Assembly: GCF_036321535.1 (NCBI RefSeq)
Contig: NC_087436.1
Span: 62,498,001-62,562,000 of the forward strand
Source of the DNA: Camelus dromedarius
Taxonomy: Eukaryota
DNA: 64,000 nucleotides
Direction: 5' to 3'
Under the pieces are notes generated by a model, which ran no database searches, had not been told where the DNA came from, and worked only from the letters and a program-made list of their open reading frames with translations. This document shows, piece by piece, positions 11,842-61,199 of this stretch (positions within the stretch are counted from its first letter, which is position 1; each line of letters starts with the position of its first letter). Both the position numbers and the translations under genes were made by a program.

Positions 11842-12365
11842 TATGTTAATTTTCTACTGCTACTGTAACAGATTACTACAAACTCAATGGTATAAAACAA
11901 CACACAATTATTTTCCTATAGTTCTGTGGTTAGAAGTCCAATACTGATGTCACTGGGCTAAAATCAAGGTCTTGGCAAGTCTGCATTCCTCTCTGGAAGC
12001 TCTAGGGCTGTGTCCTTTTTTTTCTCTTTTTTTTAAACCTTTTCCTGTTTCTAGAGGTTTCCATATCCCTTGACCCGTAACCTTCTTCTTCCATTTTCAA
12101 AGCCAGCAAAGTTACATCCCTCTTACAATTCTGTCATAGTCACAACTTCTTCTCAACATAGCCAGAAAAGGTCCTTCCCTTTTAAGAATTTATGTGCTTA
12201 GATAGGGCCCACCCAAATAATACAGGGTAATCTCCCCATCTCAGGGTCCTTAAGCTTAGTCACATCTGCACGGTCCTTATTGACATTAAGGCACAATATT
12301 TTCAGGTTCCAGGAATTAGGACATGGACATCTTTGGGAGAAAGGAGATACTATTCTTCCTATCAC
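11842..12365 (-). mobile_element. MaLR LTR, MLT1D-like (copy 1 of local duplication)
   Basis: CTGTAACAGATTACTACAAAC...GGGCTAAAATCAAGGT...TTCAAAGCCAGCA...GGGCCCACCCAAATAAT...GGAATTAGGACATGGACATCTTTGGG. Confidence 0.88.
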
Positions 12366-18679: not shown

Positions 18680-19124
18680 TCTTGCTGATTTTCTATTAAT
18701 TCTATGACAAATAGTGTAAAACAACAAAAATTTATTTGTCTTTAGTTCTGTAGGTTAGAAGTTCAACACTGGTCTCAACTGGGTTGAAATTAAGGTCTTG
18801 GCAAGGTGGCATTTCTCTCTGAGAACTCTAAGGGAGTGTCTACTTTCTTGCCTTTTCCAGTTTCTAGAGGTTTCCACATCCCTTGACTTGTGGCCTTCTT
18901 CCTTTATCTTCAAAGCCAGCAAGGTTACATCCCTTTTACTATTCTTCCATAGTTAGAACTCTTTCTCAACACAACCAGGGCTCACCCAAGTAATACAAGG
19001 TAATCTTTCCATCTCAATGTCCTTAACTTTACTCACATCTGCTAAGTCCCTTTTGACATGTAAGGTAACATATTCTCATTTTCCAGGAATTAGGACATAG
19101 ACATCTTATTCTTTTTATCTTACT
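18680..19124 (-). mobile_element. MaLR LTR, MLT1D-like (copy 2 of local duplication)
   Basis: Collinear with 11842-12365 but with internal deletions. Confidence 0.88.
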
Positions 19125-21979: not shown

Positions 21980-23297
21980 ATTAAGTATTTTCACAACAGA
22001 AACATAGCTCTTGGCTTCTTTCAAGAAAATTAAGCTTCCTGACTCCTCTGGTGGTCACTTAAATCATATGTAATTTTAGAGGTACAAACTTGTTTATAGA
22101 AGCCATTGAAATTTACATATAAGGATGATAAGACCCAGGAAAGTTACAGGCCTTCCCAAGGATAATAGCCTTTGATGATGATATGTGGTCTAGTAACAAT
22201 TTATTCTCATTAAGTGTTATTTGGAATTCATTTTACTTGGATTAAAATAATATAGAAGTTTTTGCATTTATACATCTTTGTGAAAGTAATTACATTTTAA
22301 AATATTTTGCTTCATAAAATTGTGAGATTTTATCTCTTTAAAATTTTTCCAGATAATTTTGTATAAATGAGATGCAGTCGTACTTTTCAGTTTCAAATAT
22401 AATCATAAGTGATTATCATAAATCAGTAAATACTGATGGTATAATTCATGGGAAGAATGTGTATAATGTTTAATTCAGATATTCTTATCATTTTAGCCAA
22501 TCTCTATTAATATTATAAGCACTCTTAAAAACATGAATACTCTCTGAAGTATTAGAAAACTTAGAATTGCGCATGATCTAAGAACCTTGGAAGAAAAAAA
22601 ACATTATTGTATATACTATCAATTTAATAATAATTGAAGAGAGTTTCAGAGATTTCAGTATGTCTTTTTTTTAACTGATTCCTCAATTTACATGAAACTT
22701 GATTTGGTTAATAAGGGTATAAAAATGATTTTATGACCCAATAGTGGTAATGTGAATAATGGTGAATTGAATATTTGAATTTAGTTTTAAATCTGTATTA
22801 TGGGCACTTTATGTGAATATAGGAAACTATTAGATTTATCTTTGAAATGAAATGAGCATAGAAGTATGGAATTACACAAATAAATGTATGTATTATCCAT
22901 TTTAAAAATTGCATTACTCTTTATAATATGCTTAAATGGCTAAAATATAGTATCTTTTTTCAGACTTCCATACATTTATACAGTTTAAAAGATTTTTTCA
23001 AATTCCTTTCAAATGAACCATGTAAATTAATTAAATTAACTAATAAACAAAAGTTTACTTCTCTGACACATAGAATAATTTGCTTTGTGCATTCTTAAAA
23101 ATATACAGCATGCAAGAATTCTTCATCCTAACAGATAGCTCTAAAAAAGTAAATGCTTAAAATTATGACTTTATGTTACTCAACAATGGGGAGATTTCAG
23201 TTCAGATACAAGAGCCATCCCATTGACTTATATGTCAGATATCAATGTCTGCTTGCCAGTGAAAATAATTTTATCTAGTTAGATTTGCTTATCTTTT

Positions 23298-25760
23298 TAA
23301 AAATTTTAAATTTGTCATTTTTTGTTGAAATATAGTCAATTTACATTGTTTTAATTTCTGGTGTAGAGCATAGTGATGATATATATATAATATATATACT
23401 TTTCATATACTTTTTCATTTTTGGCCATTATAAGGTATTGAATAGTGTTTGCTGTGCTATACAGTAGGACTTTGTTGTTTATCTATTTAATATTTAGTAG
23501 TTAGTATCTGCAAAACTTAAACTCCCAATTTATCCTTCCCAGCCCTGTTGCCCCCCAGTAATCATAAGTTTCTTTTCTATGTCTGTGAGTCTCTCTCTGT
23601 TTTATAAATAAGTTCATCCATGTCCTTTTTCCCCCCTCAAGATTCCACATGTAAGTAATATCATACAGTATTCTTCTTTCTCCTTCTGGCTTACTTCACT
23701 TAGTATGACAATCTCCAGGTCCATCCATGTTGTTGCAAATGGCATTATTTTATTCTCTTTTATGGCTGAATGGTATTCCATTGTATATATATACCACAAC
23801 TTCTTTATCTGGTCATCTGTCTGTGGACATTTAGGTTACTTCCATGTCTTGGCTGTTGTGAATAGCACTGCTATGAACATTGGGGTGCATGTATCTGTTC
23901 AAATTAGAGTTTCCTCTGGGAATATGCCCAGGAGTGGGATTGCTAGATCACAGGGTAATTCTATTTTTAGTTTTTAAGGAATCTCCATGCTGTTTTCCAT
24001 AATGACTGCACATTCCCACCAACAGTGTAGGAGGGTTCCCTTTTCTACACATCCCCCTCCAGCTTTTATCACTGTGGACTTTTTAATAATAGCCATTCTG
24101 ACCAGTGTGAGGTAATACCTCATTGTAATTTTGATTTGCATTTCTCTGATAATTAGTGATATTGAGCATTTTTTCATGTGCCTGTTGGCCATTTGTATGT
24201 CTTCATTGGAGAAATGTTTCTTTAGGTTTTATGCTCATTTTTGGATTGGGTTTTTGGATTTTTTTGTTACTGAGTAGTATGAGCTGTTTGTATATTCTGG
24301 AAATTAAGCCCTTGTCAGTCACATCATTTGCATACACTATGATCAAGTTGCATTCATCCCAGAGATACAAGGATGTTTAACATACGCAAGTCAATCAATC
24401 ACATCAACAAGAGAAAGGACAAAAATCATATGATCATCTCAACAGAAAAAGCATTTGACCAAATCCAACACCCATTTATGATAAAAACTCTTACCAAAGT
24501 GGCTATAGAGGGAACATATCTCACATAATAAAAGGTCTTTATGACAAATCCACCACCAGCATATAATACTCAACAGTCAACAACTGAAAGCCTTCCAGCT
24601 AATCCGGAACAAGACAAGGATGCCCACTCTCACCACTTCTGTTCAACATAGTATCAGAAGTCCTGACCACAGAAATCAGACAAGAAAAAGGGATCCAATG
24701 GGAAGAGAAGAGGTAAAATTGTCACTATATGCAGATGCCATGATTCTATATATCAAAAACCCTGAAGGCTCCAGAGAAAAACTGCTAGAGCTGATAAAAA
24801 GAATTTGGCAAGGTAGCAGGATACAAGATTAACATATAGAGATTGGTTACATTTATTTACACTAATAATGAAATATCAGAAAAGGAAAGTAAAGAAATAA
24901 TCACTTTTAAAATTGCACCAAAAAATAAAATACTTAGGAATAACCTGACCAAGGAGGTGAAAGTCTTATACATGGAGAACTATAAAACATTGGTTAGGAA
25001 AATTAAAAAATGATTTAAAGAAATGGAAAGATATCCCATGCTCTTGAAGTGGAAGAATTAATATTGTTAACATGGCCATACTGCCCAAAGCAATCTGCAG
25101 ATGTAATGCAACCCCTATCAAATTACGCAGGACATTTTTCACAGAACTAGAACGAGTAATCCTATAATGTATATGGAATCACAAAAGACCCAGAATTGCC
25201 AAAAATAAATAAATAAATAAATAAATACTGAAGATAAAGAAAGAAGCTGGAAGAATAACTCTTCCAGACTTCAGACAGTATTACAGAACTACAGTAATCA
25301 AAACATCATGGTATTGGCACAAAAACAGACATATGGACCAATGGAACAGAATAGAGAGCCCAGAAATAAACCCACTCACCTGCGGTCAATTAATCTTCAA
25401 GAAAGGAGGCAAGAACATACAATGGAGAAAAGACAGTCTCTTTGGCAATTAGTGTTGGGAAAGCTGGACATCTGCATGTACATCAGTGAAATTAGGACAT
25501 TTCCGCACATTATACACATATATGAACTCAATAATGGTTTAAAGATGTGAACATAAGGCACAGTAAACCTCCTAGAAGAGAACATAAGCAAAACTTTCTC
25601 TGATATAAATTGTAGCAGCGTTCTCCTAGGGCAATCTACCGAGGCAATAGAAATAAAAGCAGAACTAAATAAATTGGACCTAATTAAACTTACAAGCTTT
25701 TTAGACAGTAAAGGAAACCATGAATTAAATGAAAAGATAATCTGTGGAATAGGAAAAAGG
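23298..25760 (-). mobile_element. 5'-truncated, 5'-inverted L1 (~2.46 kb), cetartiodactyl/camelid type
   Basis: 23298-24332 is the ORF2 C-terminus plus 3' UTR on minus (ORFs [10 protein letters not shown]..., MWYIYTMEYHSAIK...). 24331-25760 is ORF2 RT region on plus. TSD TTTGCTTATCTTTT (23284-23297)/TTTGCTCGTCTTTT (25761-25774). Confidence 0.95.
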
Positions 25761-27979
25761 TTTGCTCGTCTTTTAAGTTCTTTCTTTAAATGGTCACAGC
25801 CTTTGCATTGATTGCAAACTATTTTTTCAGGATCAGAAAACTTACAAGTAAACAGCACATTTTATGATGAATTTAAACAGTTTTCACATTCTTTCACAGT
25901 ACTGGACAAAGGAAATTGCTGTATCTAAGCAGGCTTTTAAATGAGAGGGCACACCTACTGCAGCTCTGCTATATTAGAAAGGGTTTTTTCCACTCCTTGA
26001 GTTACAGATACTCAAATATATGTAAGCTAGATATTGTGGTTGCCACGAAAGATTTTAAAATGTGCAATTCCTGTGGATCAAGGGACATAACCTTCTGAAA
26101 GTCAGAGGAAAAGACTTGCTCATGATTTTTTTTTTTTTTGATACATTGTAAGTTAGCTGGATCCTTGTTTGATGTGATTCTAACAGGTGCCCACCCTGTG
26201 AACTCTTCTCAGTTGTAACTAGATTATTATTTGGACTAGTGGAAAAATGGCTTGTTAGCAGGACATTGCAGATAATAAAAGTGTGGGGTTGTCACATTTT
26301 TTTTTTTTCACTTCAAATGGAAACAAAGCACCAAACACATTCTACAATTCTAGAATTTAACAGCTTCTCATACAATAGCTGTAACAGTGTTGTTCTAGTA
26401 TATACAGTATATGGCACTGTTAAACAGAATTGATTTTCTTTTTAACATAAACCTAATGAATTTTTAAGCTATACCTGTTTGCAGATTCTACCCTTCACTC
26501 TCCATAGACATTTATTAACAGATCACTATATATGAATTTTGCAGAATATCTATCCCCAACCAATATACTTCCCACAAAAAATATATGAAAACTAGAGTCT
26601 AGTACTGGGACTGTAAGTGTTTCTATTTATCTGGCACAGGTGCTCTAGAAACTCACAGCTTTGTTTTGGGTGCAATACCTTTTCTCTGCATGTATTTCAT
26701 TCTAAATTTCACCATAACGTTTTCCTAATAATGGCTGCTTCCTCAGCTAGACTGTAAGACTTTCACCTACTCCTACCTTCACTTCTATTCAAACAAAATG
26801 TTTTTCCTCATTTTTCCACAAAATACCTACTTAGGAATTATCAAAGTTTATTTTCCTATGTTTTGTATTTTAATTGCAATGCTAATCTAGATACACACAT
26901 GCACACATATACATTACATGCTGGGAAGTGTGTGTATGTGTGTGTATGTGTGATTGTTGCATCAGCGTTTTATAGTCAGTTAAAATCATGTTATCATAGT
27001 GTCTTCTTTGCATTTAGTTTACAGTTACCTTGGCTATGATAATAGTTTAACTCCAAAAATCTATCGTCAAAAGAAGAGACAGACTCAATCTTTTGTGACT
27101 CAACATTTGTATCAGCTTAAGATCAAATGATGCTATGGCTACAGCTACAGGGGCATTCCAGGAGTCTGGGAATAGGAAGTGATAGATTGGAGGTATCCCA
27201 GGACACACAGTTCTAGAGATGTACTGTATTTTAAAAAATGCTGTGGCATACCATATAATATTTATTACACAAAGATTCCGTTTATGAACATCATCTAATA
27301 AATATCATTGTTTAAGTGCTTTTTCATGTTTCATTATAAAAATTTGTGCTTATTTTGATATCTTTACATGAGCTATGGGTCGATATATAATGTTATTTTA
27401 CAGGTTTAAATAGCATTATATTAAAGATAATCTAAGTAAGTGCTCATGAAAATTCATGAAATTCAGTAAAATTATTTTCCCCCATTCAAATGGGGTTTTT
27501 CTGTTACTCAAGTTTGAACAATATTGTTCTATGGATTACTGTGTTAACTGGGAAATCCAAGATATTGTAACTTCCCCTATTTCACTGAAAAATAAGATTT
27601 CTCATTCTTATTTGAGATAAGCCCTCTGTTCAACTATACACTCCTTTTAAAATGTGTATTTGCTTCTGGGCAGCTAAATTGCACCATTCGTAGAACAACT
27701 TCAGTTTTGTGGAAGTAGCAAGAAAAAAGCATGTTTCAGTGGGGGTGTCCCAGGTTTCCTTTGCCTGAATCTAATGCTGAATATTTCACATAAGCCTCTG
27801 GCACAGGTGACAGAATGGTTAAGGCCATCAGAAGACTGTGTTTCTTTAAGTCAGGTGCATAAGTTCTTCTGGAGCTTTTTATTTCTCACATGAAGTCAGT
27901 TGTGTTGGTTTGCTGATCGTTGAATGCATTCAGTAGTAAAAGCGGTATCCCTAATAGTCTCCTTTATTGTTTGTTCCAG

Positions 27980-31499: not shown

Positions 31500-32545
31500 A
31501 ATTCACAAATGAATAAACTTGCAGTGTGTTCCGTTTGAATAAAAATAAATTGAGATGCCAGTTTCCTCCTAACCAAATGATACTTTTTAAGACAGAAAAT
31601 ACCTATTGTAGTCCAAAGATTAGAAAAGGAGGTATCCTCATCCATATCCAGTGGGATTATAAACAGGTGTATATTTTTCAGGAGGCAGTTTGCTAATATA
31701 AAAACCCTATTCCAGAGCCCTTTCTTCTGCCTTCCCATCTCCCTTAGATGAGGCCAGTGGAGGTGGCAGCCAGCTGCCACCTGGCCTCATTCTTGTCCTC
31801 AGACACCTCATAAAGTCTCAAATCATAGACAGAACTAAAAAGTCTGTTCACCATAAGTCACATTGATATGGGAAAACAAAGAAAACCTACAGAAAAAATT
31901 ACAGGTAATGTCTAGAGGGGATTTTTTGAGACAGATTTTTTTTTTTTTTAATAGGAGAGACAGACAGCCCAGATAGCTTGATACAAGCCAAATCTTACTG
32001 TAGGAAATTACTGATCTATTTCTCCTAAAAACCAAAAAATGTCATGAAAAGTGCAGCCATAACCCCCTTTATGCCTTAAAATTGTTAAAAAAAAGAAAAA
32101 CTAGAAAAACTCAAAAGCCATAAAATTAAGCATATACTCTTTGACTGATAATCTTGCAGCTAGGAGTTAACTGTAAGAAAGTAATCATGTCTGTGCTCAG
32201 TGTATAAGCCGAAGTCATCCCATGTGGGTTTTTAATACTATGAAACTGAAAATAACCAATATCTCCAAATACAGAAACTTGGTTAAATTCATTTATTCAC
32301 ACCACAGTTAAGTGCCTCTTATATTCCAGGGATTCTTAATGTTCACATCAGGGAACGAGACAGGCAAAAATGCCTTCATTTGTGTTAAATTTTATTGGGG
32401 GCAGTCTATAAGGAATACTAGATATGTAGACATTAAAATTGTATTTTAAAATAAAATTTTAATGAAATGGAATTCAAAAATAAAAAAGTAATATATATAT
32501 GTGTATAAAATAAATACAAGAAATATACCATTACAATTATGATAG
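31500..32545 (+). mobile_element. Old L1 (L1ME-like) 3' fragments, interrupted
   Basis: GTGGGATTATAAACAGGTGTATATTTTTCAGGAGGCAGTTTG and GCATATACTCTTTGAC...CTAGGAGTTAA resemble the L1ME ORF2 end/3' UTR. Confidence 0.5.
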
Positions 32546-32565
32546 ATTTCACTGGTGATATTTTT

Positions 32566-32921
32566 ATTTATTTTTTATATATATTTTTATTGAAGTATAG
32601 TCAATTTACAATGTTGTGTCAACTTCTGGTGTACAGCACAATACTTCAGTCATATAGGAACACCCACATATTCGTTTTCATACTTTTTTTCATCATAAGT
32701 TACTACAAGATATTGAATATAGTTCCCTGTGCCATACAGTATAAACTTGTTGTTTAACAGATTTTGTGAGAATCCTTCTGTATTTCGAAACGAGAGACAT
32801 TCTGCCAGAGTTCAGTAGGTGTTCTGCACAATTCAGTGAGTTTGTAGATGTAATTCTTGGTGTATTTGTGGGAGAGGGCGAGCTGTGAGTCTCTCTACTG
32901 CACCACCTTGGCTCAACCCCC
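32566..32921 (-). mobile_element. Short L1-derived element: L1 5' UTR start (32758-32921) fused to L1 3' end (32566-32757)
   Basis: Minus strand begins GGGGGTTGAGCCAAGGTGGTGCAGTAG...CTCGCCCTCTCCCACAAATACACCAA (L1 5' start with decayed YY1 CAAGATGGCG) and ends in L1 3' UTR plus poly(A). 17-bp TSD TCACTGGTGATATTTTT/TCACAGGTGGTATTTTT. Confidence 0.88.
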
Positions 32922-33339
32922 TCACAGGTGGTATTTTTAAATTAACCTTATTTTCCATATTGCTCAGAGCAAGTTCTATTACTTTAAATGAGACTTCACT
33001 TTCTCCCTAAATACTGTGTTTCTTAAAATTATCTATTCTTAATATTTTCAACAGTTGTATAATAGAAAAGATACACTGTTTGAATAAAATAAACACATGC
33101 AAACACACATACACAGACACACAATTATACCATTACATTAACCACAAATTCAAATGTGATGTTTATTTTCTTTGCTTTAGATTTACAGAAAAAGCATGGA
33201 GCACTCCAAAAAAGGAACAGTGAAATATCATAAAGGAATAAACGTAATACTCCTATGTTTAAAGTTTGTTTAATGTTCAAGTGCAAGAAGTTGGTATAGC
33301 TGAAATATGAATCAGCATGGCTTATTGATTGCTTGCAAA

Positions 33340-35615: not shown

Positions 35616-35836
35616 GTTTGTTTCTGTGGTTGAAGTACAGTCTATTTAGAACGTTGTGTTAGTCTCTGGTGCAGCCACTATGGAAAACAATATGGAGAGT
35701 CTTTAAAATCCTAAAAATAGACTTACCATGTGATTCAGCAATCCCCTTCCTGGGCGTATCTCTGGAGGAAACTCTAATTCGACAAGATATGTGTATCTCA
35801 GTGTTCATAGCAGCACTATTTATAATAGCCAAGACA
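35616..35836 (-). mobile_element. Very short 5'-inverted L1 insertion (~220 bp)
   Basis: 35616-35671 is the extreme L1 3' end on minus. 35667-35838 is the ORF2 C-terminus on plus (QPLWKTIWR...DSAIPFLG). TSD TGTAAGTATTTTT (35603-35615)/TGTAAGTGTTCTT (35837-35849). Confidence 0.88.
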
Positions 35837-38129
35837 TGTAAGTGTTCTTAATAACATTTCTTGTGACCTTGGCTACCCTTTGACATCCCTGAGAGGGCTG
35901 CTTTTCTGTCTATGAAAAGTAATCCATAATTCTTTACCACATAGTCATTTTATAATAACAAAAGATTGAATTTAAATGAATTTATATTCTGGAAATGGCT
36001 CTTCCCTGGGAAAGTTGGTGACAAACGTAGTAACTAAGTGTCTAAGTATGGCAGATTTAAAATTAGTTTCCACTTGACAGTTGTTCTGTTGCGTGCTGGA
36101 AGTTTTCAACATGTTTTTTGAAATCTTCACAATTTTCTTCATTGTACAGAAGAGAAAACCAAAGGCAAGGAAGTCTCAGGAGTTTACTGAGGTCCATATA
36201 GAACTGAACTGAAGGCATTCTGATTTCGTAGCCCAAAATCTCTTTACGACATCATAGCTGTTCTCTGGTGGGGGGAATATTTAATAAGGAAAAAAAAAAC
36301 CTTTTATTTGTATAATTACTTACAGCTTACATAAATACCATTATAATATTTTCTTATTTAAAATAATTTCGATAAACGTGTTGACTGAATATGAGGAGTT
36401 TTTCTGCTCTTCTATAATTTCTAAGGGTCAGTAGGACTCAAAGTACATATATTAGGTCCTAACCACGGGCCCAGATCCTGAAAACACAGTGAGCAAACCA
36501 ACTACAGGCAAGTGAACGCTCCTGAAGGGCAGCGATCTTGCAGAAAAGGCTGTGAGAAACTGGGTTCACCACTGAACACATGTTGCTTTGCTATTAAGAA
36601 AGGAGGTGAGAGGAAGCTCTTGTGGATATGTTTTCTTTTTATAGATTGGAAATATTTTGGAGGAAGAAAAACACTCAATATAAGATAGTGTTATGAAGAT
36701 TTAATATCACATTGTTAATTTTTAGGAACCAAACACTAAGAAAACCACAACAACAGGAACAACAAAAACAGCTATTTTAAATTGTACTTACTCTACCTGG
36801 AAATATGCCTTCAACAATTAAAAATCATAGAGCAAAAACACTGTGTTTCATACTTCTCCGTAAAAGTTCTCTTAGGCATTCCCTTTGGCAGTCTGCATGC
36901 ACTCCGACGTGTGATACAGGCACGGCTTCTGTGTCGCAAACCGCAGAGAAAGCTGGTAGTCCCGAATTTGGTGATCAACACATGTGATTTAACTCATCCT
37001 AAACTCTGTTTGATTAGATTCATTAATCCCATATGCTCTCTGATGGGTTCATCTCTGGCCCATCTGGTTAAAATTCACCAGAACCTCCCTTTAAAACACT
37101 TTCTAAAGTATTTTAAATTTTTACTTTATTGCAGGCTTTTCCATTTTTAATCATTACATATGTTTTCAACATTTCATTTTTCTGCTCTATTATATTCCAT
37201 TCATATTTCATTATGATTCCCATCTGTCTGTCACATCTTCAAGTCATGTCTACTATTTTCTATGACAATTTCCTTCTGCCTTTTATTGAAGTGTCGATAA
37301 ATAGCTTTGGTATATAAAAATGTTGCCATATATTACAACAAACTCTGATTGCACGTCCCTATTTTTCTAGATGTCAGCCTTCTGTCAATGTTCCAAATTA
37401 TGTCTTAGTTTACATCTGTTCAAACAACGATTTTAAATGTAATAATGTCTCTGTTCCTACAAAATACCGTTTCAACAGTCAGCATATTTTGAAAGTTTTC
37501 CCCTCAAATTACAAAGTTTGGATAAATTTCTGACATAGCTATAGAGTGGAAAATGCATGTTAGAAAATAATCTGATTTTAAAAAAGGTTCTCAAGGGAAT
37601 ATATTTATTTATGAAAAGTATTGTATTTATTCAAATAATGCTATCATTTATAGCACTTGAGAAAATCACTATATTAGTAGTGAGTTCAAATATTGGCTAT
37701 CCATTAATTATATAGGAGAACATTTTTATTCCTTGTCTGTAGCAATTTAAAGTGCTTAGATGAATTCAACATTTTCTAATACCTTAATTGATTATAAGTT
37801 TTTATGGCATTCAGTACAAAAGTAGCAAGCTAAAATATTAAACTCTGTGTCATTCCCTTCTTTCATTCTCTCTCTTATTACTATCCCTTTTGATGTTGAA
37901 TTATATCTATCTGTTAGTTATTCATAAAACATAATATCTAAATAAACTATGTAAACTAAAATGGATCTCTCTGGGTATACCACGTCACTCTTTGAGAATT
38001 TATGATACTGACATTGATAACCTTCAGAGGATGAGAAAAATCTATAATCCTTCCAAATAAAGGGTTTTTTCACCCTGAGTTTCTGATAAAACTAATACTC
38101 ATACAAGGCACCTGGGAATAATAGAGAGC

Positions 38130-59656: not shown

Positions 59657-60450
59657 TAGGTATGACTCAATCAATTATATATTTATTCATTTCGTAACCC
59701 TGTTCAGGTCCGGGAATCCTACCTTTTGAATCCTCTCTCTTGTCCCCTGCTTGGTGCCATGTATTGAACCATTGTTGACTATCTCTCCTTTTTCTTTTCT
59801 TTACCTTAATAATTGGCTATGTTTTAAACTGACTTTACAGAACTATTTTTAGTCTGGGCTGCCTCTTCAGTATTTTTCTGTGGATTCCAAACATGCCTCA
59901 AGCAAGTCCTTAGCTGGATTAAAACTCCCCATAATCATAACAAACAGATAAGTGTGAGGGGAAAGAAACAGACAAAAGATCTCTAACTTAATTTAAATGT
60001 AGAAATCCCAGAAAATGCCAGCCTTCTCATTTTTTCCTCTTGCCATCACTATCATCTACTCAATAGCAAAGTGATTCCCTGTAAATACTCATGTTAGAAA
60101 CTATAGGTATAAATGTGCACCTGCTAATGACCTACAATATAAATGTTTTATATTATTTTTCTTACTTTTTAAAAATGTTGGGACTTTTGTACATCACCTA
60201 CTTTCACTAAACATCTCTTTCCTCAGATGTTAAATGCGTCAGCATCAAAACCTGCATCATGAGTATCAGTGGCTTACAAGGGAATCCCAGAGAGAGCAAA
60301 GGACACTCCTTTGAGAAACACTAGGGTGGTGACAGCATCAAACAGAATACTATGTCAGAAAACATGAGCAGTGATGACGGCATCAAACATTGAATCAGAA
60401 CTCAGATGAAAATATATTTTAGGTATGACTCAATCAATTATATATTTATT
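59657..60450. repeat. Exact 31-bp direct repeat, copies 763 bp apart
   Basis: TAGGTATGACTCAATCAATTATATATTTATT at 59657-59687 and 60420-60450. Confidence 0.95.
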
Positions 60451-60558
60451 TATTTTTATTGTATATTCAATAATGATATCTGCTTGAAATCTAGATCTAC
60501 ATGTCTAAAAGAGTTCATAAAAATAAAGTGAAAATTATGTAATTATCATTGATTGATT

Positions 60559-61036
60559 GGTTTTTTTTAATTGAAGTAAAGTCAGTTACAGTGAGTCAAG
60601 TTCTGGTGTACAGCACAGTGTCCCAGTCATGCATATACACACATATATTCATTTTCATATTTTTTTATTAAAGGTTATTACAAGATACTGAATATACAGA
60701 AGGAACTCGGATTTTTTTGAATCTTTTTTTATATATAGTGGCTAACATTTGCAAATCTCAAACTCCCCATTTATCCCTTCCCACCCCCTTTCTCTGGGTA
60801 ACCAGAAAATTGTTTACTATGTCTGTGAGTCTGTTTCTGTTTTGTAGATGAGTTCATTAGTGTCCTCTTTTTTTCTTTTTCTTTTTTTCAGATTCCACAT
60901 ATGAGTGATATCATACAGTGTTTTTCTTTTTCTTTCTGGGTTACTTCACTTAGAATGACAACCTCTACGTCCATCTGTGTTGCTGCAAATGTCATTATTT
61001 TATTCTTTTTTATGACTGAGTACTATTCCATTGTAC
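60559..61036 (-). mobile_element. 5'-truncated L1 3' end (camelid type)
   Basis: Homologous to 23320-23790, with TSD ATCATTGATTGATT (60545-60558)/ATCACTGATTGATT (61037-61050). Confidence 0.92.
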
Positions 61037-61199
61037 ATCACTGATTGATTTATATTATATGTAATATATATTATATATGTATTTAAATGGGATATTATAC
61101 ACATAATATACATATTATAATTAATTTATAAATATATGTATATCTTATACATGCAAATATTTATAAAATATATAACTGTCTCTCTTCCCTTAGAGGATA

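Follow-up and report, generated by a model that had tools for sequence, protein, structure and literature searches.

A 64,000-nucleotide (nt) stretch of the Camelus dromedarius genome (assembly GCF_036321535.1, contig NC_087436.1, positions 62,498,001 to 62,562,000; hereafter the window) carries, at positions 32549 to 32938, a short insertion composed of the two ends of a LINE-1 (L1) retrotransposon. On the minus strand, a pair of target-site duplications (TSDs) encloses 356 nt, in which the beginning of the L1 5' untranslated region (UTR) is joined directly to the end of the L1 3' UTR. The features of the locus, and the corresponding region of a neighboring L1, are listed below with the evidence for each in parentheses.

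32922–32938, minus strand: 5' copy of the TSD, 17 bp, AAAAATACCACCTGTGA (sequence; chance control)
32549–32565, minus strand: 3' copy of the TSD, 17 bp, AAAAATATCACCAGTGA (sequence)
32934–32940, plus strand: site of the L1 endonuclease type, TTTTT/AA, on the outer margin of the TSD (sequence; consensus as given in PMC5860796)
32758–32921, minus strand: L1 5' UTR nt 1–164 with the start of the internal promoter, putative first exon (colinearity with the giraffe consensus L1-1_Gir, by eye; depth of camel contigs)
32901–32909, minus strand: decayed YY1-type box, AAGGTGGTG, at nt 13–21; the giraffe L1 has AAGATGGCG (sequence)
32757–32758, minus strand: junction, CTG/TT in the window copy (contig alignments of four runs)
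32584–32757, minus strand: last 174 nt of the L1 3' UTR with AATAAA at 32591–32586, putative last exon (alignment)
32566–32583, minus strand: decayed poly(A) tail (sequence)
23483–23506, minus strand: unspliced acceptor region in a neighboring L1, outside the element; TACTAAC at 23506–23500, an A/T-rich spacer and AG at 23484–23483

The two TSD copies differ at 2 of 17 positions (18 with the preceding T), and none of 3000 random 18-mers from the window was matched equally well when a 90-nt zone, placed about as far away, was searched. The element thus bears the insertion hallmarks seen in spliced integrated retrotransposed elements (SpIREs), namely a TSD of 6–25 bp, a poly(A) tail and an L1 endonuclease site. 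The initial annotation had described what looked like a retrotransposed spliced L1 RNA, and its coordinates, the TSD with two mismatches and the TTTT/AA site all agree with the sequence. Its two-ended L1 structure also held for the 164 nt of the 5' start; the 3' part, described there as about 190 nt of UTR plus poly(A), comprises 174 nt of UTR followed by a decayed A tail. The box at nt 13–21 is presumably a YY1 site, as in human L1. The 356 nt consist of UTR sequence only, and ORF1p is not encoded. A single open reading frame (ORF) that spans the junction was considered as a gene and rejected, since it had no Pfam match and no match in word-index protein searches. Rfam matches and tRNA genes were both 0 in the whole window, and the predicted RNA fold of the element was not better than that of shuffled sequences (z = +0.90).

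The 3' piece (32757–32584) aligned with three further L1 3' ends in the window: 60696–60565 (78% over 138 nt), 23481–23319 (71% over 173 nt) and 35671–35630 (81% over 42 nt). The match to the L1 at 23.4 kb ends exactly at the junction, after the AG at 23484–23483, which bore out the earlier proposal that the 3' piece begins right after an AG of an unspliced L1. The 5' piece occurs only once in the window. By eye it is colinear, from the first bases, with nt 1–163 of L1-1_Gir, a full-length giraffe consensus published in PMC8620236 (supplementary file 2), and the shared camel/giraffe anchors lie at 51/50, 71/69, 107/105, 114/112 and 156/156.

The three related L1 3' ends belong to larger remnants. 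The L1 at 23280–25780 (minus strand) is 5'-truncated and has an inverted 5' part with a switch near 24335, which corresponds to a twin-priming pattern; an imperfect direct repeat of ~14 bp near 25775–25761 and 23298–23284 resembles its TSD. The segment at 60565–61038 (minus strand) is the 3' end of an L1 of another subfamily; it retains the acceptor AG, reads TGTTAGC in place of the branch-point motif and carries a short deletion directly downstream. Positions 35630–35852 hold a short L1 relic, with inverted ORF2-end sequence directly beside the final 42 nt of the 3' end.

The recurrence of the junction was examined in four of 24 listed public runs, which were aligned to positions 32400–33090 at 80% likeness. 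Runs X1 and X4 were taken as DNA and runs X16 and X19 as RNA or guessed RNA; all four consist of contigs, and individual records were listed for 32 of 74,692. The window copy has a private letter at 32757. At this position other joined copies read G/AT (minus strand), unspliced 5' relatives read G/GT and unspliced 3' relatives read AG/AT. The joined letter was present in 56, 52, 21 and 22 contigs of X1, X4, X16 and X19, with up to 61, 61, 54 and 56 letters, respectively, from this position to the contig end. Among the 32 listed records, three bridge the junction by at least 31 letters on each side (X1 no. 3, X16 no. 10 and X19 no. 18) and five more by 23–30 letters. The bridging contigs are 12–15% different from the window copy, with 0–9 gaps, and therefore represent other loci; X1 no. 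4 and X4 no. 27 probably come from a single locus. The 5' piece in other camel copies reached a summed depth of thousands of units. The question of whether the junction is single-copy, on which the initial annotation had made its reading depend, was thus answered in the negative, because the junction recurs in contigs of all four runs. The element accordingly belongs to a small repeat family and is not an isolated case.

With regard to the insertion in the window itself, no contig spanning it was found among those listed, and only the 3' flank (32400–32557) appeared. The depth in the four-run alignment was zero at 32568–32591 and 32928–33023. No joint skipping the whole element was seen among the 15 of 31 joints listed, although contigs cannot show absence. 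In 14 of the 24 listed runs, 0.88–0.91 of the words of a 1701-base stretch, 23% of which is the element, were present; from this word content we infer that other animals carry the insertion. Both DNA runs also contained one contig that joins 32899 back to 32730 and another that skips 32752–32845 (the latter also in X19); these are rearranged copies involving both pieces. In X19, which has another organism label, the unspliced letter at the junction was nearly missing (1 contig against 22 joined), unlike in the other three runs.

Relatives that continue past either side of the junction delimit the stretch missing from the element. At the donor side, the unspliced letter G at +1 was present in 26, 14, 5 and 1 contigs (X1, X4, X16 and X19), and in X4 these contigs end no more than 16 letters from this position, in line with unspliced parents. 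Two records, X16 no. 12 and X19 no. 22, align through 32756–32754 (T, A, A) before 33 and 26 unlike letters, respectively; since they align through +2 to +4, the donor was read as G/GTAA. The giraffe consensus reads G/GTAGG, with GT at nt 164–165, at most 1 nt from the camel position when compared by eye (the camel piece ends at nt 164). In addition, P0002, a spurious ORF found in a Logan contig, shares 64% identity with the junction-crossing frame over 44 residues and continues as S-G-R beyond the junction, which is compatible with G/GTAG. The initial annotation had left the donor GT to be looked for in the parent L1; these three sources place one there, so that the stretch removed from a parent L1 would start with GT.

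At the acceptor side, the loose-end consensus at the 32756 boundary reads AG in all four runs, and the removed stretch would accordingly finish with AG. TACTAAC is the optimal branch-point sequence. It ends 17 nt upstream of the acceptor in the X4 and X19 consensus and in the window L1, which places the candidate branch A at −19; in the window as a whole, only 9 of 8321 AG sites have TACTAAC 10–35 nt upstream.

We consider that the element represents a retrotransposed spliced L1 RNA and is a member of an old family whose copies number in the tens or reach a few hundred at most, a reading to which we assign a probability of about 0.8. A full-length camelid L1 would have been transcribed from its internal promoter, and the spliceosome would have joined a GT donor after 5' UTR nt 164 to an acceptor AG located 174 nt from the 3' end, with the removal of both ORFs. 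Acting in trans, L1 ORF2p would then have taken up the resulting 0.35-kb polyadenylated, ORF-less RNA and integrated it via target-primed reverse transcription. The data establish the insertion hallmarks, the two parental boundaries and the recurrence of the junction; we infer that the spliceosome made the join, that both ends came from one parent L1 and that mobilization took place in trans; the GT, the AG and the recurrence make the splicing and trans-mobilization proposed initially the best reading. The two TSD mismatches in 17 positions and the 12–15% difference between copies, i.e., 6–7% per copy, suggest that the copy is old.

Several observations weigh against this reading. Regarding the donor, the T at +2 in camel was taken from alignment ends and not from printed letters, the giraffe–camel comparison was made by eye, and the Gly of P0002, which may come from another species, fixes only +1. 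Regarding the acceptor, a polypyrimidine tract is missing, with the 15 nt before the AG being A/T-rich; the X1 loose-end consensus has one letter of TACTAAC missing or different, the window L1 at 60.7 kb has TGTTAGC in its place, and the giraffe L1 has another type of 3' UTR, without the camel acceptor. A full-length camelid parent with both ends was not seen, nor was the TSD of any other copy in the listed contigs. The ratio of joined to 3'-end depth is about the same in the RNA runs as in the DNA runs (0.004–0.005), and therefore these contigs give no sign of present-day RNA production. Finally, AAAAT, G and TA are common to both parent sites around the junction; because of this patchy microhomology a homology-guided jump is possible, and the figure of ~0.3–0.7% for a random junction that complies with GT-AG does not apply to such a jump.

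The last point leads to the strongest alternative, in which no splicing took place: an ORF2p template jump or a DNA-repair deletion at AAAAT..G..TA would have produced the join, which was then amplified as a non-autonomous family like Bov-A or the Vingi derivatives. The homology is real (CAAAATCYG/GTA at the parental 5' site and TAAAATAG/ATA at the 3' site), the acceptor has no pyrimidine tract, and two-part LINE derivatives are usually attributed to internal deletion (PMC5786205). However, a homology-guided event would be expected to cross over more easily in AAAAT or TA, the longer shared blocks, whereas the crossover sits in the single shared G, the sole GT-AG register; an indel at the junction reaches 5% in none of the four runs, and the branch-point match at −19 is unexpected under either a jump or a deletion. 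We therefore regard this explanation as unlikely, but it deserves more weight than the two that follow.

That the copies spread by segmental duplication or gene conversion, or that the joined counts are mostly aligner leakage from the abundant L1 3' ends, appears highly improbable. The joined depth does follow the 3'-end depth in all four runs, at the ratio given above, and the individual records represent only a small part of the total. Nevertheless, the 3'-only records (701, 630, 218 and 237 in X1, X4, X16 and X19) were clipped at 32756, and the depth at 32759 was 0.97–0.99 of that at 32757, with no gap and no matching A>T substitution listed there. Leakage would require two specific changes in one of ~700 records, and several listed records align at least 100 letters of the 5' piece and continue into the 3' piece. 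Hardly credible, finally, is a single full-length L1 insertion whose middle was deleted later, without any family. One TSD around both pieces would fit such an event, as would the lack of a TSD for any other copy in the listed contigs; it is contradicted by the divergent bridging contigs in all four runs, among which X1 no. 4 and X19 nos. 19 and 20 have differing gap counts and long unrelated flanks.

If the join was made by splicing, the copies may have arisen in two ways. Parent L1s may have been spliced repeatedly, every copy being a dead end as in human SpIREs, for which we see somewhat less than an even chance. Within the same splicing interpretation it is quite possible, though somewhat less probable, that one or a few spliced copies with enough promoter acted as masters, i.e., that the element is a self-copying, ORF-less L1 parasite transcribed by RNA polymerase II. 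In the two DNA runs, 0.25 and 0.26 of the summed depth over the 5' piece belongs to the joined form, a share far higher than the 2% of human SpIREs (131 of 6609 full-length L1s; PMC5860796), and the element retains nt 1–164 with the YY1-type box as well as its own AATAAA. On the other hand, a 0.35-kb RNA is much likelier than a 6-kb RNA to be copied through to the 5' end, which inflates the joined share without any master, and relative to all L1 3' ends the joined form amounts to 0.4–0.5% by depth and 7–9% by contigs at the junction. According to the same source, promoter activity is lost in human SpIREs, which are dead ends, and a splice site fixed in the parent family yields identical junctions without any master copy. 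Summed depth, moreover, is not equal to copy number: its ratio to single-copy depth (~200–270) is an upper bound, being inflated by fragmenting, while filtered or more diverged copies are missed. Since the bound is inflated yet some copies escape, tens to a few hundred copies were estimated. The fullest form of the master-copy proposal, a single splicing event that gave a 0.35-kb ORF-less RNA polymerase II retroposon which then copied itself, and hence a two-part family of the L1 clade formed via GT-AG splicing and not by deletion, is by a small step more doubtful still.

The element was compared with known systems as they are described in the sources cited here. The SpIREs of primate L1PA1-6, SpIRE97/622, 97/790 and 97/976 (Larson et al., 2018; PMC5860796), are similar in that an internal L1 stretch is removed between a 5' UTR GT and an AG, with a TSD, poly(A), an endonuclease site and a junction present at many loci. 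In both of their described classes, which are spliced inside the 5' UTR or from there into ORF1, ORF2 is retained, whereas the camel element has a 5' UTR-to-3' UTR junction, has lost both ORFs, measures 0.35 kb, is wholly trans-dependent and occurs in a camelid. The camel element works like a SpIRE yet falls outside the described classes. Human SpORF2 and other spliced L1 RNAs also connect a 5' UTR donor to a downstream acceptor, 97 to 1837 and 290 to 1920 (Belancio et al., 2010; PMC2896524). These RNAs retain ORF2 and were seen as RNA, while the camel acceptor is a 3' UTR site whose spliced product has become fixed in DNA; the available parts of PMC2896524 and of bioRxiv 2025.02.02.635956 deal with human spliced L1 RNAs and chimeras only.

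Bipartite LINEs (long interspersed elements) that lack ORFs resemble the element in another respect, as they are built solely from an autonomous LINE's 5' start and 3' end and are multi-copy. They include Bov-A, RIME, NARTc and the Vingi and R2 derivatives (Kojima, 2018; PMC5786205). In the text available from that paper they are reported only for the RTE, Ingi, Vingi and R2 clades, with internal deletion as the cause, and the word stem "splic" has 0 occurrences; the part of PMC7245038 that was available adds no L1 case of an ORF-absent two-part LINE. The L1 parent of the camel element thus lies outside the reported clades. HAL1 (half-L1) is likewise a non-autonomous internal-deletion derivative of mammalian L1 (PMC5786205, in the same part), but it retains ORF1, whereas the camel element has neither ORF. 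Nor does the element have the head of a short interspersed element (SINE), derived from tRNA, 7SL or 5S RNA, since its head is the L1 5' UTR. The camelid SINEs ALPINE1 (~127 nt) and SINE_VV (~101–119 nt), both SINE2 in Repbase (PMC6726744), are short camelid retroposons like the element; they are set apart, by their description, through the SINE2 class and a third of the length. Of the repeats named in the available text of PMC6726744 (L1-1/2/3_Vpa, ALPINE1 and SINE_VV), none is recognizable as the camel element, and in that of PMC8605555 the only camelid SINEs named are MIRs. Neither an L1 spliced from 5' UTR to 3' UTR nor a camelid mini-element derived from L1 was found described in the full-text literature, which covered few subscription papers; an entry may exist in Repbase, Dfam or the repeat library of PMC8605555. 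The family may be an L1 parasite without genes that is as yet undescribed.

A 192-position match to L1-2_Vpa in the camel casein cluster was rejected as a second copy, as it had no adjoining 5' match and starts 10 nt earlier in alpaca. Motif scans of viral contigs (2, 0 and 29 stretches), metagenomes (0 and at least 118) and prokaryote genomes (30) gave no mammalian L1; the 179 loci aligned over 39 nt at most and were set aside as chance. BLAST against plasmids and phages gave no match, P0002 matched only itself in the word-index protein searches, and P0003 was dropped as an unrelated ankyrin-like protein. Atlas returned only matches under 0.9.

Elsewhere in the window, a 36-nt direct repeat (59657–59692 and 60420–60455; 97% alike, 763 nt apart) exceeds the usual TSD length and is possibly a templated duplication or a transduction; a related 14-nt stretch adjoins an L1 tail at 60535–60548. 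Two diverged copies (76–85%) of an older interspersed repeat lie ~6.8 kb apart at 11952–12333 and 18778–19107.

Since both halves match L1, repeat masking would treat copies of this kind as a pair of L1 fragments, and they would escape notice. The camel element extends spliced L1 insertions beyond primates, to a new class without either ORF, and indicates that an RNA with just the two ends of L1 can be copied in trans many times. If the copies descend from a master, L1 would be one more among the few LINE clades that give rise to two-part parasites without ORFs, with splicing as a route, and a self-copying element would be a counter-example to the view of spliced L1 insertions as dead ends.
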